From an uncultured bacterium (GTDB lineage Bacteria; Planctomycetota; UBA1135; GCA-002686595): 64,000 nt of DNA. Below the pieces are notes generated by a model. It worked only from the letters and a program-made list of their open reading frames with translations. It searched no databases and was not told the origin of the DNA. How positions within the stretch are numbered: position 1 is the first letter of the stretch; the number at the start of each line of letters is the position of its first letter. The position numbers and the translations under genes are program-made. Positions 43,701 to 50,710 of this stretch are shown piece by piece. Location of the stretch: contig CALSNU010000002.1 in NCBI GenBank assembly GCA_943787795.1, forward strand, positions 64,001 to 128,000, given 5' to 3'.

Positions 43701-44003
43701 GGGCGTCTTTGACTCGGGGTCCGATGAGCGGGTCCGCCATCTTCGGTCAACGAACGCCGCCGTCCAGAGTCGGCGCTCAGTTCCGCCTTCCGAACGGCGA
43801 AGCGGCGAGCCCGCAGGCCCCTCCTCAGGACCGGGACGTAAGGCGAGCGGCCCCCGATTCAGCCCGCCTGGCTCGTCTCGGGACGATGCACACACCCCTC
43901 TACGGTGTCGCCACTGGCGGTCCCTTCGCGCTCCCCGCAGAAGTTCGATAGCCTCGATGCAGCGGCGAGCCGGCCGCGCCCAGAACCCCTTCCCCGAATT
44001 CAA

Positions 44004-45074
44004 ATGAACCGTCTGCTCTACGGACTCGCTGCCGCGATCGCCACAGGTGGCGTCACCCTTGCCCAGCAACCCTCCATCTACGTCGATATCGGCAGCGTTT
44101 CTGGGGGAGCAGGCACCCCTGCCACCACCTTCGGGGCCGCCGCGTCCGTCGGCGGATTCTGGAACGATCTCGACCTCGACTTCGTCGCTGGACCGGTCCT
44201 CGTGAGCCCGCCGCTCAACGACATCAGCAGCAGCCCAACCGCCGTGACGCTGACCTGGGACGGGCTCGGTACGGACCCGCTGCCGCTCTTCTTCGACGAG
44301 CTGTGCACGACAGGCGACGACCAGGCGCTCATGGACGACTGCGGGTACATCGGCGGCTCCAGTCAGTTCCGCTTTGACGGCCTGCCCGGCGGGACCTACA
44401 CGGTCCTGACCTACGCCATGGCCCCGGACAGCGCGGCCTTCCTCACCAACGTCAACGTCCCGGGATCTCTCGACCCGGCGCAGGACGTGGGCGGCGACTT
44501 CTGCCTCGGCTACGCCCTGGGAATCACGCACTCACAGCACACGGTGACCGTGGGTGTGGGCCAGCCCCTGGTGATCGACGTCTCCGTCACCGCCTCGTTC
44601 GATAGCCTGAATGGCATCCAGATCTTCCCGGGTACAGGCCCGAGCTTCGGGACGAGCTACTGCGGACCGGCGGTGACGAACTCGTCGGGTGCGCCCGCGG
44701 TGATCAGCGTCACCGGGACGCCGCTCGTCTCGCTGAACGACTTCAACCTCGTCTGCAGCTCTATGCCCTCGAACTCCTTCGGCTTCTTCCTGGTCAGCCA
44801 GTCCCAGGGCTTCGTCGCCAACCCGGGTGGCAGCCAGGGCAACCTCTGCCTGGGCGGGGCCATCGGCCGCTACGTCGGCCCCGGGCAGATCCTCAACTCG
44901 GGATCAGCAGGCACCATCACCCTCCCCGCGGACCTGACCATGATTCCCAGCCCCACAGGGTTCATCGCCGCGGCGCCCGGTGACGTGTTCAACTTCACCA
45001 CCTGGTTCCGGGACTCGTCCATGGGCGTGGCGACCTCGAACTTCGCCCAGGGCGTCGAGGTGACGTTCCAGTAG
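44004..45074 (+). CDS. Secreted beta-rich protein with a roughly 140-aa Cys-containing C-terminal domain
   Basis: Signal peptide; C-terminal GTSYC..AVTNSSG...GFF...[15 protein letters not shown]...F..WFRD...SNF. Confidence 0.8.
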
Positions 45075-45137: not shown

Positions 45138-45175
45138 GAAGGAGGCCCCGCAGCGAATGCTGCGGGGCCTCCTTC
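45138..45175. terminator. 17-bp stem hairpin between convergent genes (probable bidirectional terminator)
   Basis: gaaggaggccccgcagc-gaat-gctgcggggcctccttc. Confidence 0.8.
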
Positions 45176-45207: not shown

Positions 45208-45552
45208 TCAGAGCGTCGCCGAGAAGCGCGTGCCCTCGAAGGCGGCGATCAGCGCCTTCGGCTCAACGTTCGCTCCTGCGCAATCGACCGTCGCGGTCTT
45301 CTTGTCGTAGTCCACCACGACATCGGACTCTTCGATTCCGTCGAGCTCAGCAAGTGCAGACCGCACTTGCGGGGGGCAGCCCGCGCCTCATGTCATGCCC
45401 GTGAGCCGGAGCGTCACGGTCTGGGCTTTGGCGACGCCCATGCCGGCGGCGTTGCCGTCGGCCGGGGCGTTGGTCGTGTCGATTTCGGTGGTCTCGGCCG
45501 TGCAGGCCACAAGGCCAAGCGCGAGCGCCGCGGGAAGTAGGGTCTTGAACAT
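45208..45552 (-). CDS. Probable selenoprotein: heavy-metal-associated (HMA/MerP/CopZ-like) lipoprotein, 114 aa, Sec at codon 55
   Basis: Not in ORF track. MFKTLLPAALALGLVAC...TVTLRLTGMT-TGA(45388-45390)-GAGCPPQVRSALAELDGIEESDVVVDYDKKTATV...; the HMA pattern continues in frame across the TGA. Confidence 0.85.
45350..45370 (-). promoter_or_regulatory. Putative bacterial SECIS hairpin
   Basis: mRNA GCAAGUGC-GGUCU-GCACUUGC; stem starts 18 nt after the UGA, loop at +26 begins with GG. Confidence 0.8.
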
Positions 45553-45667
45553 GTTGATCTGGGTGATGGTGAGGGGACCACACTAGTGTAGCTCAAGTCC
45601 GCCGGACCCCACATGCCGGCAAGAGCGCGCCTGCCCCCCCCTGCCTGGTCTCCCTGAGCCGTCCCGC

Positions 45668-46342
45668 ATGATGCCCCGCGACCTGGAAGGCCGGATCCTG
45701 CTCGAAGCGGGAACTGTCCTCGTCATCGACAAGCCCCCCGGCCTCCCGTCCACTGGCCGAAGCCTGGACGATGACGATTGCCTCCAGCACGCGGTGATCC
45801 AGCGCGCCGGAGGCATGGTCTGGGCCATCCACCAGCTCGACGCCGACACGAGCGGCGTCAACGTGTTCACCACGGAGCGGCGCCATGTCGCCGCCCTGAA
45901 GGGGGCGCTGTCCGCGCCCTCGGCTCGAAAGCACTACCTCGCCATGGTCCACGGGTGTCCCCCTTGGGAGACCCGGATCGTCACCGACCCCATCGGGATG
46001 GTGGACGGCACCAGCCTGGGGGTCACCGCCCATGGACGCTCGGCCCACACGGAGTTCGAGGTCCTCGATCGGGGCCCGGAACATTCCCTGCTGCGCGTCA
46101 GGATCCTGACCGGGAGGACCCACCAGATCCGGATCCACGCCGCGCACCTGGGCCATCCGCTGGTTGGAGAGGAGTGGTATCGCTCTCCTCCGTGCGCGGC
46201 GCACCCCCGCCAGGCCCTCCACGCGAGCCGGCTCGCCCTTGAGGGAGACCTCCGCCTCGACGTGGCGGCGCCTATCCCCGACGATCTCAGAGAGCTCGCC
46301 AATGGGCTCGGCCTCTGCCTCGACCGCGCCACGCCCTACTGA
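45668..46342 (+). CDS. RluA family pseudouridine synthase
   Basis: IDKPPGL, HQLDADTSG, KHYLA, TGRTHQIRIH, GHPLVG, ALHA. Confidence 0.92.
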   Translation: MMPRDLEGRILLEAGTVLVIDKPPGLPSTGRSLDDDDCLQHAVIQRAGGMVWAIHQLDADTSGVNVFTTERRHVAALKGALSAPSARKHYLAMVHGCPPWETRIVTDPIGMVDGTSLGVTAHGRSAHTEFEVLDRGPEHSLLRVRILTGRTHQIRIHAAHLGHPLVGEEWYRSPPCAAHPRQALHASRLALEGDLRLDVAAPIPDDLRELANGLGLCLDRATPY

Positions 46343-46418
46343 CCCCCCGGGCCCCGCATCGCTCCAAGCACGCCGGACGAACGCCCGCCCGCAACGCGTC
46401 CGCGCCCCCTCCAGTCCC

Positions 46419-47651
46419 ATGAATCAGCAACCCCGACACCGAGCCGCCGCGCTCATCGCCCTCTCCCTCGCGGCGAGCTGCGCGCCAGAGTCCCCGCAGA
46501 GCGCGAGCGCCGCAGGGGCCGGAGCTGAGCGGGCCGCCCCCGTCGAGGTCGCTGACATCGAGATCGGACCCCTGACCGAGCGGCGCGTGTTCACCGGAAC
46601 CCTCGAGGCCTCGGCAGAGGTCGTGGTCGCACCGCGCGTCGCCGGCAACGTCGAGCGCCTCTCCGTGGACATCGGCGACCCCGTCGAGAACGGCCAGGTC
46701 ATCGCGTGGATCGACGACGATGAGCTGGTGCAGGCCGTGGCCCAGGCGGAGGCGGATCAGGCCGTCGGTCGGGCCACCCTTGAAGAGGCCGAGGCCTCAG
46801 CGAATCTGGCCAAGCGGGTCCTCGCGCGCCAGGCGCAACTCCAGCAGGAGGGCATCGCGTCCTCGGCCGAGTTGGAGAGCGCCGAGGCCGCCGACGCCGC
46901 CAGCCGAGCCATGGTCGCCGTCGCGAAGGCCAGGGTCGTACGGAGCGAGGCCTCCCTTGAGACCGCGCGCGTGCGCCTGGGACAGACACGGATCGTGGCC
47001 GAGTGGGAGGCGCCCGCCGCTTCGATCCACAAGGACCGCCCCGCCGGCGACGGCTCGGGGGCGCCCGCCGGCCCGTCCAGGTACATCGCCGAGCGCTTCG
47101 TCGACGTGGGCTCTATCGTCAACTCGAGCACGCCGATCCTCTCGCTCGTCGCGCTCGACCCCATCGTCGCCGTGATCTTTGTCCCCGAGCGCGACTTCTC
47201 GAGGCTCGCCGTGGACCAGCGAGCGAGCTTCACGACCGACGCTTATCCGGGCCAGTCATTCGAGGGGCGCGTGGCGCGCATCGCGCCCGTCTTTCGACGG
47301 AGCACCCGGCAGGTCCGCGTCGAGCTCGAGGTCGACAACGCCGACCTGCGGCTCCGACCCGGCATGTTCGTCCGCGCCACGCTCGAGCTTGATCACGCAG
47401 AAGACGCGACCATCGTGCCCGTGGACGCCCTGACGGCGCGCGACGGCATCGAGGGCGTCTTCGTCCTCCCGCTCGGCGCGAAGACCGTCCGATGGGCCCC
47501 GGTCCAACGCGGCTTGCAGGAGGACGCCAGGGTCCAGGTCTTCGGCGACGGGCTCTCCGGCGGGGTCGTGGTCCTTGGGCAGGAGCTCTGCGATGACGGC
47601 AGCGAGGTGAGCGTGTTTGACGCCGGGCCCAACGCCAACGGCGGGCGATGA
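46419..47651 (+). CDS. RND efflux periplasmic adaptor subunit
   Basis: Lipobox LAASC; VDIGDPV..GQ, coiled-coil hairpin, LRPGMFVR. Confidence 0.92.
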
Positions 47652-50600
47652 GCCTCCCCGCCGCCAGCGTCCGGCGCCCGGTCTTCGCGACCATGGTGTC
47701 GCTCATGGTCGTGGCCCTCGGCGTCTTCGCCCTGGGCCGCCTGAGGATCGACCTCCTGCCCGAGGTGGAGATGCCCTCGTGCACGATCCGGACCACATAC
47801 GAGGGCGCGAGCCCAGAGGTGGTCGAGCGCCTCGTCACGCAGATCATCGAGGAGGTGGCCGCCACGGTCCCCGGGGTGGAGGAGATCGAGTCCACGTCCC
47901 TGGAGGGGTCGAGCCGCGTCACGGTCCGCTTCGGGTATGGCGTCAACGTCGACGCCGCGGCCATCGACCTGCAGGCCCGCGTGGACCAGGAGGTGGACGA
48001 GCTTCCCGACGAGGTGACCCGCCCCCGGGTCCAGAAGTTCGACATCGGCAGCTTCCCCATCGTGATCCTGGGGGTCAGCAGCAAGCTCGACCCCGTGGCC
48101 CTGACCCAGCTGGTGGAGGACCAGATCCGCTTCCGCTTCTCGCGGATCCCCGGCGTGGCCCAGGTGGACCCCTGGGGCAGCTTCACGCGCGAGGTCCGGG
48201 TCGAGCTCGACCCCCAACGACTCAACGCCCTGGGAATCCCCCTCGACCGCGTGCTCACCGCGCTGCGGGAGGCCAACCTGGACCGCCCGGCCGGCCAGCT
48301 GGAGGAGGGTCGCTACGAGGTGACCCTGCGGGCGCCAGCGGAGTTCCAGACCCTGGACGAGATCCGAGACACGGTGATCCTCGAGCGCGGCGACGGCGCC
48401 GTCACCGTCGGTCAGATCGCCGTGGTGAAGGACACCTACGAGAAGCTTGATCGCTACGTCCGCGTGGACGGCGACCTCGGGCTCAGGGTGGCGATCCGGA
48501 AGCAGTCCGACGCCAACACCGTCGAGGTCGCCAAGGCCATCCTCGAGGAGGTGGAGCGCGTCAATGTGGCTTACCCCCAGCTCAACGTCGTCGTCACCTC
48601 CAACCAGGGCGACTTCATCCGCCGCTCCATCGACAACGTGGCGAGCTCGGTCCTCTACGGGAGCGCGTTCGCGATCCTCGTGCTGCTCTTCTTCCTCCGG
48701 AGTCTGCGCAGCACCCTCGTCATCGCGGCGTCGATCCCGATCTCCATGGTGGCGACCTTCGCCCTCCTCGAGCTCGGCGGGCTGACCCTCAACCTCATGA
48801 CCCTCGGGGGCCTCGCTCTCGGCGTCGGCATGATGGTGGACAGCTCGGTGGTCGTCCTGGAGAACATCTTCCGCCGGCGCAGCGAGTATGGAGAGGACGC
48901 CGTGACCGCCTCGGTCACCGGCGCCGAGGAGGTGGCCAGCGCCATCCTCGCGAGCACGATCACGACCCTGGTCATCTTCCTCCCCCTCGCCTTCATCGAG
49001 GGCGTGGCCGGCGCGCTGTTCGGCGAGCTGGCCCTCGTCGTCGTCTTCAGCCTGATCTGCTCGCTGCTCGTCTCCCTGAGCCTCGTCCCCGTCCTCGCCT
49101 CCAGGCTCCTCGCGCGGCCGAGCTCCCAGGGCTCCTTCGCTGCCTTCGCCGAGCGCGGGTTCCAACGCCTCGATAGCGCCTACGCTGGGCTCCTACGACG
49201 CGCCGTCCGCCGGCCCCTCGTGGTGGTCGCCCTGTCCGGCGCGGCGCTCGGTGCCAGCCTGCTCCTCTACCCCCTCATCGGGACCGAGTACCTGCCCCCC
49301 AGCGACGAGGGCGAGGTGCGAGTCACCGGGGAGATGGCCGTGGGCACCCGGCTCGACCTCGTGGACCGCCAGACCCGCCGGATGACAGCGCTGGCCATGC
49401 CGCTGGTTCCCGAGCTTGTGTCCAGCGTGGTCTCCGTCGGACCCGGCTGGCGCGGCACCGTCTCGGCCCAGGGAGACATCCAGATGTCTCTCGTCCCCGC
49501 GCGGGAGCGCACTCGGTCCAACGCCGAGATCGCGGACGCCCTTCGAGCCGCCCTCTCGGGGCAAGTCGCCGGCATGTCGATCCGGACCCGCGCACCCGAG
49601 GGGCAGTTTCTCTTGCAGCGCGTGCTCGGGAGCGAGGGCGGCGTGGAGATCGAGGTCCGCGGCCCTGACCTTGACGTCCTCGAAGGCCTCGCGGCCCACG
49701 CCGCGCGCATCGCCGAGGAGACGCCCGGCGTGACCGACGTCACGGTCAGCCGGCGCGCCGGGACGCCCCAGCAGGAGATCCTCGTGGACCGGGGCAAGGT
49801 GGCCGACGTCGGGCTCTCCGTCCGCGACGTGGCGCGGGTCCTGGAGGTGGGCTTCGCCGGCGCTCGAGCGGGCGAGTTCCGCGCGGACGGTAACTCGTAT
49901 CGGATCCTCGTCCAGCTGGAGGACGCCGAGCGACGCTCCATCGACGAGGTGCTGGACATGACCCTGAGCACCCCGGGGGGCGACGCGGTCGCCTTGCGGA
50001 ACCTCGTCGACGCCAAGCCGAGCCGCGGCCCCCTCGTGATCGAGCGCAAGGACCAGCAGCGCGTGGTCACGGTCTCCGCCAATGTCGCAGGCCGGCCCGA
50101 AGGGTCCGTGGCCCGAGACCTGCAAGCCGAGCTCACCGCGCTTCCGCGGCCCCGGGGGCACGCGGTCGAGGTGGCGGGCACGTTCGAAGAACAGGAGAAG
50201 GCGACGCGCGAACTCGTGCTGTCGTTCCTGCTGGCCATCGCCCTGGTCTACATGGTGCTCGCCTGCCAGTACGAGTCCCTGCGCGACCCCCTGGTGGTCA
50301 TGCTCTCGGTCCCCTTCGCGGCCATCGGCGTCCTGGTGACGCTGCACCTCACCGGTACGACCCTCAACATCCAGAGCGCCATTGGCTGCATCGTCCTGGG
50401 CGGGGTTGTGGTGAACAACGCCATCCTCCTGGTCGATCAGGCCGGGCGCCTGGTCCAGGACGGCACCCCCGTGCGCGAGGCGGTGGCCGAGGCCGGCCGT
50501 CGCCGCCTCCGACCGATCCTGATGACGACGCTCACCACGGTCCTGGCGCTCCTCCCCCTGGCCTTCGGGATCGGGGAGGGCGCCGACGCCCAGGCGCCCC

Positions 50601-50710
50601 TGGCGCGCGCCGTGGTCGGCGGACTGGTCGGGTCGACCCTGATCACCCTCTTGCTCATCCCGGCCGCCTACACCCTCGTCCGACGCTCCGAGGCCCCCGA
50701 GCCCGCCTGA
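47648..50710 (+). CDS. RND efflux permease (AcrB/AcrD/AcrF family)
   Basis: [35 protein letters not shown]; 1020 aa. Confidence 0.96.

Follow-up and report, generated by a model that had tools for sequence, protein, structure and literature searches.

A predicted exported selenocysteine-containing HMA-domain lipoprotein with a UxxxC site in marine Planctomycetota

Selenocysteine (Sec) in the metal-binding site of an HMA domain is already known. According to the accessible text of the sources, a P1B-type ATPase ('cation-transporting ATPase E1-E2') carries Sec at the first Cys of the HMA GMT-C motif (PMC2398784, PMC13188914), with the sequence GMTUSSC in the GOS set of 2008 (PMC2398784), and a review from 2026 lists, in the sections available, a UxxU metal-binding protein (NF041115), a UxxC cation-transporting ATPase and a MerT-type protein, and calls the role of selenium in metal binding unresolved (PMC13188914). 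In the ATPase the HMA domain is fused to the transporter and cytoplasmic. NF041115 ('putative mercuric reductase') is a 74-position model of a small HMA selenoprotein with two Sec residues in UxxU and no room for a signal peptide, and NF045683 (MerT/CopZ fusion-like) describes a Sec-associated, membrane-tied HMA domain with a MerT part. MerP (TIGR02052) and the periplasmic CopZ-like proteins are exported single HMA domains; signal-bearing CopZ-like genes are noted in Bizionia in the accessible part of PMC11213822. The original prediction for the locus described here had allowed that Sec-bearing HMA proteins may already be catalogued, which the ATPases of the 2008 set and the NCBIfam models bear out.

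Sec machinery and 13 candidate selenoproteins have been reported from two planctomycetes in 2016 (PMC4807772, Table S9); in the available part of that source none is named HMA and one is 'hypothetical'. An exported UxxxC HMA protein is absent from Table 1 of PMC13188914, with which PMC9312934 agrees in its accessible text, and no such family appears in the available portions of the Haft and Gwadz preprint, PMC1976440, PMC12013277, PMC1794560, PMC5029168, PMC13326102 and PMC11213822. The GOS 'MerP' selenoprotein was considered as a possible member of the same family and set aside, as it is given in the accessible text as a 33-residue UC peptide, unrelated to the protein at this locus (PMC2398784). 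No description of an exported UxxxC Sec-HMA family was found in the full-text literature searched, a scope that excludes Haft and Tolstoy 2025 and the BSepDB sequences. Within what was searchable, neither the exported UxxxC form with its lipid anchor, nor its spread in Planctomycetota, nor the U-only paralogue described below appears to be catalogued.

The gene analyzed here lies in a 64-kb stretch of DNA (the window) from a planctomycete whose genome assembly is 4.7 Mb long and 85% complete; all 14 DNA runs that contain most of the stretch are marine. On the minus strand from 45552 the sequence reads MFKTLLPAALALGLVAC..., continues through the linker and TVTLRLTGMT to TGA 45390-45388, then GAGCPPQVRSALAELDG... 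and the stop at 45210-45208. Downstream of the UGA there are GAGC and 55 further residues (59 in total) before the stop. The start codon, lipobox, TVTLRLTGMT, post-UGA segment and stop of the original prediction were all re-read in the sequence, and the TGA falls, as claimed, exactly at HMA Cys1, giving GMT-U-GAG-C with U as residue 55. The consensus promoter/terminator scan called no promoter for the gene and returned nothing relevant, and the inverted repeat 3' of the stop was not flagged by it. The features are collected in Table 1.

Table 1 Features of the selenoprotein locus (window coordinates)
Feature	Position	Strand	Basis or detail
Selenoprotein gene, 114 aa: lipoprotein signal, flexible linker and HMA domain (predicted)	45208..45552	-	start ATG 45552, stop TGA 45210-45208
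Signal peptide, lipobox LVA|C17 (C codon 45504-45502)	45502..45552	-	pattern match; C17 invariant in 21/21 aligned relatives
Low-complexity linker; length varies among relatives	45421..45501	-	pLDDT ~50
HMA (ferredoxin-like) domain, residues 45-114	45211..45420	-	AlphaFold, Foldseek, PF00403
In-frame UGA, predicted Sec55, at HMA Cys1	45388..45390	-	contigs of two DNA runs; TGA conservation in relatives
Cys59, second ligand (predicted) of U-x-x-x-C-P site	45376..45378	-	invariant in 21/21 aligned relatives
SECIS-like hairpin, 8 bp, GGUCU loop at +26..+30	45350..45370	-	rare codons, pairing and covariation
16-bp G+C-rich inverted repeat 3' of stop; probable terminator common to the convergent gene	45139..45174	-	sequence and fold
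TACACT, possible -10 box, 33 nt 5' of ATG	45585..45590	-	TACACT/TAGACT in 6 of the closest relatives

Against PF00403 (HMA; cut-off 24.8) the 114-residue product, its U entered as C, reaches 39.2 bits, and it gives the only PF00403 match in the host genome. The AlphaFold model, based on a 21-row alignment, has pLDDT of 84-95 across residues 41-114 and a disordered linker; the model and the Foldseek matches agree on a ferredoxin-like beta-alpha-beta-beta-alpha-beta fold, the best matches being the metal-binding domains of ATP7B, MerP and PacS (rmsd 1.6-2.0 A). The canonical HMA CxxC spacing is not found: the U-x-x-x-C loop is one residue longer than C-x-x-C in the PDB HMA sequences compared, an insertion that matches the atypical spacing noted originally. 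A Cys follows the hydrophobic signal by pattern match and is invariant in the relatives aligned (n=21), and the lipobox makes it very probable that the protein would be exported and lipid-anchored. Binding of a soft metal by U55 and C59 is likely to judge from the modelled fold.

The host encodes selA, selB, selD and tRNA-Sec (selC), each above its family cut-off, so that the implied Sec machinery is present, and its selD itself has an in-frame UGA. Of 1910 long coding-like ORFs 1604 stop at TGA, and tRNA-Sec is the sole UCA tRNA among the 45 tRNAs; the genetic code has therefore not been reassigned. Nor is the TGA an assembly error, since in DNA runs X6 and X9, from two studies unmarked as possible source, the contigs that span the codon show it unchanged, as TGA rather than TGC or TGT. 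Both runs are one base shorter in a G run at window position 45634, upstream of the gene and outside any coding frame, probably a homopolymer error or a strain difference. The RNA runs X15 and X16, from a possible source study, cover the gene only piecewise, like its neighbours, and give no expression evidence. Decoding of the in-frame UGA as selenocysteine is strongly supported on sequence grounds.

The hairpin GCAAGUGC-GGUCU-GCACUUGC at 45370-45350 comprises 8 Watson-Crick pairs with no bulge and, beyond a 17-nt spacer, begins with the 18th nucleotide 3' of the UGA, just as it had been described. It is written in A/T-ending codons whose relative use in the host genome is indeed low (CAA 0.08, TCT 0.04, GCA 0.05, CTT 0.04). 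Among 20,000 synonymous re-codings drawn by genome codon use, 8 pairs arose in none and 7 pairs in 918, and a comparable stem follows about 0.7% of 10,785 sampled genomic TGA triplets. The rare codons are retained in the genus-level genes, with GCA for Ala+11 in 15/15 (host use 0.05), TCT or TCA for Ser+10 in 14/14 and CTT for Leu+12 in 13/15; over the 15 genes the share of rare codons is 58% within the hairpin vs 15% outside. Of 44 distinct segments with the UGA, 38 to 42 retain the five inner pairs, 43 conserve the apical G+27, and the pair +20/+36 alternates between A-U (20) and G-C (13). Pairing and covariation in these 44 rows lie above all 500 shuffles and every slid control, a test that the relatedness of the rows inflates. 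Conservation of the hairpin, which the original prediction had set as a check, is clear in the 44-row set only: pair counts on 24 rows were weak (66/500 shuffles equally high), RNAalifold gave no consensus for the first 24-row alignment, and whole-region folding of the 61-nt region was no better than shuffles (z -0.55).

The likeness to the E. coli fdhF SECIS proved partial. The fdhF tip had been given correctly; its sequence is TTGCAGGTCTGCAC, and GGTCTGCAC is common to fdhF and the selenoprotein gene; however, the fdhF loop lies at +19..+23 instead of +26..+30, and fdhF has a bulged U where the present hairpin has no bulge. The GGUCU loop also occurs in the host's own FdhA and SelW-type genes, at differing distances from the UGA. 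As a genome scan, the literal fdhF-like loop motif gave 117 matches, mostly by chance, and was abandoned for a coding-score screen.

A strong orthologue is present in 14 of the 17 other genomes of the genus, and the codon is TGA in 14 of the 15 strong genus-level orthologues and TGT in one, which answers the check proposed for homologs. The protein is matched in 34 of 61 related genomes. Thirty loci of relatives, two of which gave no row, yielded 31 domain rows, with TGA in 28, in one more on re-inspection, and Cys in 2. A search of 201 class genomes, using a profile built partly from sequences it then matched, returned 66 matches below 1e-16, 63 of them with one TGA, and 29 loci from this search contain 37 domains (35 UxxxC, 1 CxxxC, 1 without the motif). 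The frame beyond the UGA is conserved, with HMA homology, across many genera. A profile search of 1.84 billion representatives was dominated by multi-HMA ATPases. In the single-sequence database search all 6 proteins found end at ...GMT, as expected for a gene invisible to ordinary gene callers, and two further database proteins have W at the Sec position; the family is hidden from annotation because its entries stop or are altered in this way. Four of the five close database matches are labelled Planctomycetota.

The Cys-coded versions occur in the relative genomes G004 (locus L013, TGT) and G033 (L025, TGC), both with the hairpin retained and selA present; overall selA was found in 59 of the 61 relatives, both Cys carriers included. 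The host (G000) and G004 proteins, natural U and C versions, are 89% identical, and the G004 hairpin is identical to that of the window, which suggests a recent codon change.

In the phylum, 159 of 301 genomes have some HMA match, many being ordinary ATPase domains, and the exported relatives show UxxxC, UxxC, UxxxU, UxxU, CxxxC and CxxC sites, in adjacent gene pairs or triplets and in two- or three-domain tandem forms. Paralogous HMA lipoprotein pairs or triplets are seen at L024/L127, L147-L150, L153, L155 and L168; one neighbouring paralogue at L127 lacks both ligands, and L168 has UxxxC, UxxC and CxxC side by side. At L077:1474-2154 (-) and L078:917-1324 (+) MerT-like membrane proteins are fused to UxxxC or UxxxU HMA domains and score under all NCBIfam cut-offs. 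All Sec-HMA relatives inspected have either a signal peptide or a MerT fusion.

The host itself has a more distant U-only paralogue at C4:265189-265836 (-) (L048:1690-2337), an exported protein of 216 residues with two UGAs, each followed by a SECIS-like hairpin, in the sites GKG-U-SAG and GLT-U-SDT of tandem HMA-like repeats with no second Cys. It is matched in all 17 other genus genomes and has no Pfam or NCBIfam match; profile comparison relates it distantly to the selenoprotein family (94.9%, E 4.5e-8). Its model, built with no alignment, has pLDDT 65, with HMA domains as the top three Foldseek matches at E > 0.001, and a wide structure search gave generic ferredoxin folds only. The U-only paralogue is possibly more novel than the UxxxC lipoprotein.

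The selenoprotein gene is solitary, divergent from an RluA-type gene and an RND pair and convergent with a gene that belongs to no known family. The convergent neighbour (window 43905-45074, +) has no Pfam or NCBIfam match; its product of ~350-390 residues is 75-84% identical in close relatives and looks exported. The RND adaptor and permease (window 46164-50710, +) stay near the selenoprotein gene in close relatives only; they are of multidrug type and score under the family cut-offs for CusA, and the pump was rejected as a partner on that score. RND genes near four more distant homologues were likewise rejected as orthologues of this pair (~30% identity, best hits elsewhere). A Pfam scan of 186 neighbouring ORFs of relatives (100 + 48 + 38, chosen through a composition filter from flanks of mostly 1.5 kb) revealed no recurring metal gene; a P1B-ATPase (G045), a Fur gene (L069) and a pyridine-nucleotide oxidoreductase (L038) each occur in a single case, and the neighbourhoods scanned showed no conserved association with genes for oxidases, SCO proteins or transporters.

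Genes missing from the host are given as 'not found' rather than absent because its genome is 85% complete. No P1B-ATPase, CusA, PCuAC or multicopper oxidase was found in it, and no MerA above cut-off; MerT was found neither there nor in any of the 17 genus relatives. The host has genes for heme-copper oxidase subunit I and for SCO proteins, two of each. Among the 15 genus-level gene carriers a P1B-type ATPase was found in 7 and not found in 8; the latter, the host and 7 genus relatives with genomes 80-90% complete, include the host with its heme-copper oxidases. PCuAC was found in none of 105 family genomes, with or without the selenoprotein gene, and in 7 of 201 class genomes. Replacement of PCuAC by the selenoprotein was considered and is unsupported by the distribution: there is no complementary pattern, because 5 of the 7 PCuAC genomes also match the selenoprotein family.

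A coding-score screen of the host genome gave 255 read-through candidates, mostly adjacent genes, from which 19 were chosen by eye besides SelD and the selenoprotein gene. NCBIfam models match 13 of the 19, and four are above cut-off (FdhA, SelW-type, ArsC-type, AhpD-type). This marine planctomycete with heme-copper oxidases has ~20 selenoprotein candidates genome-wide (L049-L065), among them FdhA, SelD, SelW-type, ArsC-type and AhpD-type proteins, a SelL-like protein, a DsbD fusion and a number of exported proteins of TlpA/thioredoxin-like type. No NCBIfam family was matched by four read-through candidates that are exported and have good hairpins, C2:619320-620618 (-), C2:427086-428411 (-), C6:580997-582637 (+) and C2:247214-248380 (+); across them the motifs W-U-C (in an FG-GAP repeat protein), C-T-U-G, I-U-I-C and GVPGVW-U-PG occur, and they may represent further new selenoprotein families.

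We propose that SelB bound at the downstream hairpin would bring Sec-tRNA, so that the UGA is read through as selenocysteine. The product would be exported and lipid-anchored at Cys17, the flexible linker holding the single HMA domain outside the cytoplasm, where the usual HMA loop, to judge from the fold, would offer a soft metal two-coordinate ligation by Sec55 and Cys59. Cu(I) may be caught and buffered at the surface or in the periplasm before being handed on, e.g. to SCO proteins and heme-copper oxidases. With selenium, the first ligand of the site would stay deprotonated and readily re-reduced in an oxidising compartment. A housekeeping extracytoplasmic carrier or buffer of Cu(I) is the role we consider most likely, with somewhat more confidence than doubt, the metal and its acceptor being presumed. 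In its favour are the strong orthologues in 14 of the 17 other genus genomes, the lack of a recurring metal gene among the neighbouring ORFs scanned, and the extracytoplasmic copper demand to which the two oxidase subunits I and two SCO genes point. The periplasmic or surface soft-metal (Cu/Hg/Ag) chaperone of the original prediction is upheld in its HMA fold and lipobox, but a MerP-like resistance role is disfavoured because no mer or cop partners were found and the gene is steady in the lineage. The copper reading stays uncertain since there is no genomic tie to oxidase assembly, and the departure of UxxxC from CxxC, together with the P1B-type ATPase in 7 of the 15 genus carriers, would also speak against it.

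The strongest alternative, still rather unlikely in our view, is a redox protein on the HMA scaffold, in which a selenenyl-sulfide cycle of U55 and C59 would reduce peroxides or oxidised envelope proteins and would be recharged by the exported Sec-thioredoxin and DsbD-like proteins of the host. That most of the other host selenoproteins are thioredoxin-like would fit such a role too: the NCBIfam matches of the 13 scanned candidates are mostly to thiol-redox types, many of them exported. A structure of oxidised MerP exists (title of 1osd), no metal-gene context surrounds the gene, and most uncharacterised selenoproteins are held likely to be redox proteins in the accessible section 7 of PMC13188914; yet the GMT-x motif and the entire HMA fold are retained, UxxxC/UxxxU domains are fused to MerT-like membrane parts in the phylum (L077, L078), and one relative adjoins a P1B-ATPase (G045).

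An improbable reading is that of a surface or periplasmic sink, which would hold toxic soft metals (Hg, methyl-Hg, Ag, excess Cu) on selenium without hand-over to a transporter and so replace missing efflux. The affinity of Hg for Se is high, the nearest exported HMA model is MerP, a P1B-ATPase was not found in 8 of the 15 genus carriers, and a one-ligand substrate, e.g. methyl-Hg, would match the U-only tandem paralogue. No merT or merA partner was found, however, the lineage keeps the gene steadily, with no patchy distribution, and stoichiometric use of scarce selenium would be costly.

It is very improbable that this small exported protein, like its tandem relatives with several Sec residues, mainly holds or shuttles selenium. 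The richness of the host in selenoproteins and the 2 to 4 UGA codons in single genes of some relatives would agree with a store or carrier, but here 114 residues contain a single Sec, neither the second Cys nor the loop varies, and G004 and G033 encode Cys versions although both retain selA. That the UGA is a true stop, whether in a pseudogene or at the end of a 54-residue peptide, or is decoded as Cys or Trp is hardly credible, since the HMA-homologous frame beyond it is conserved across many genera, TGA is the main stop (1604/1910 long ORFs) with tRNA-Sec as the only UCA tRNA of 45, and the hairpin covaries and is maintained by rare codons, even if some selB-dependent E. coli SECIS features (bulged U, loop at +19) differ.

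As a speculative and on the whole doubtful proposal, a lineage-wide set of exported Sec-HMA proteins in Planctomycetota (UxxxC lipoproteins, UxxU/UxxxU, tandem and U-only forms) might constitute a selenium-based route of soft-metal capture and trafficking outside the cytoplasm, in streamlined marine members without CopA, CusA, PCuAC and mer, tying ocean Cu (or Hg) handling to selenium supply. Selenium supply would affect the trace-metal physiology of marine planctomycetes should Cu or Hg be what the protein handles. The analysis adds a well-supported selenoprotein family, cut at the UGA by gene callers and claimed by no NCBIfam model, which is common in an aerobic marine lineage, whereas Sec-metal proteins are otherwise mostly listed in anaerobes. 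The U/C pair of the host and G004 and the site series CxxxC, UxxxC, UxxxU and U-only offer a natural test of the role of selenium in metal binding in an oxidising compartment.

Compared with the known systems (curated families of NCBIfam, June 2026), the selenoprotein shares with the Sec-bearing P1B-ATPase the position of Sec, but it is a free lipoprotein with UxxxC from a host in which no P1B-ATPase was found, and it has no ATPase fusion, the gene ending at residue 114 ahead of a terminator-like hairpin. NF041115 is its best NCBIfam match (45.2 bits vs cut-off 95) and differs by UxxU; its cut-off was reached in none of the 301 phylum genomes. NF045683 matches in the HMA part only (37.2 bits vs 375), the selenoprotein having no MerT part, which the fused UxxxC/UxxxU relatives in the phylum do have. 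The fold of MerP is the same (1osd, rmsd 1.8 A), but the score against TIGR02052 is 39.2 bits vs 92.55, and the selenoprotein differs by its lipid anchor, Sec, extra loop residue and lack of a mer operon, its neighbours being the RluA-type synthase and the no-family protein, with MerT and MerA not found in the 85% complete genome. None of the NCBIfam cut-offs was reached by 19 relatives. Nearest among the non-Sec groups found are the Cys-only CxxxC lipoproteins of Bacteroidota type (e.g. P0166, Flavobacterium sp.), for which no functional study was found in the literature searched; like the selenoprotein they have a lipobox, a linker and GMT-C-xxx-C, but Cys only. They group with the selenoprotein family, apart from CxxC domains (96/97 support), in a tree of few columns (72) that omits P0177 (no motif match) and is not used for the direction of change. 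The selenoprotein is an HMA-domain protein and a member of neither MerP, NF041115 nor NF045683, and it would work like an exported HMA metallochaperone.
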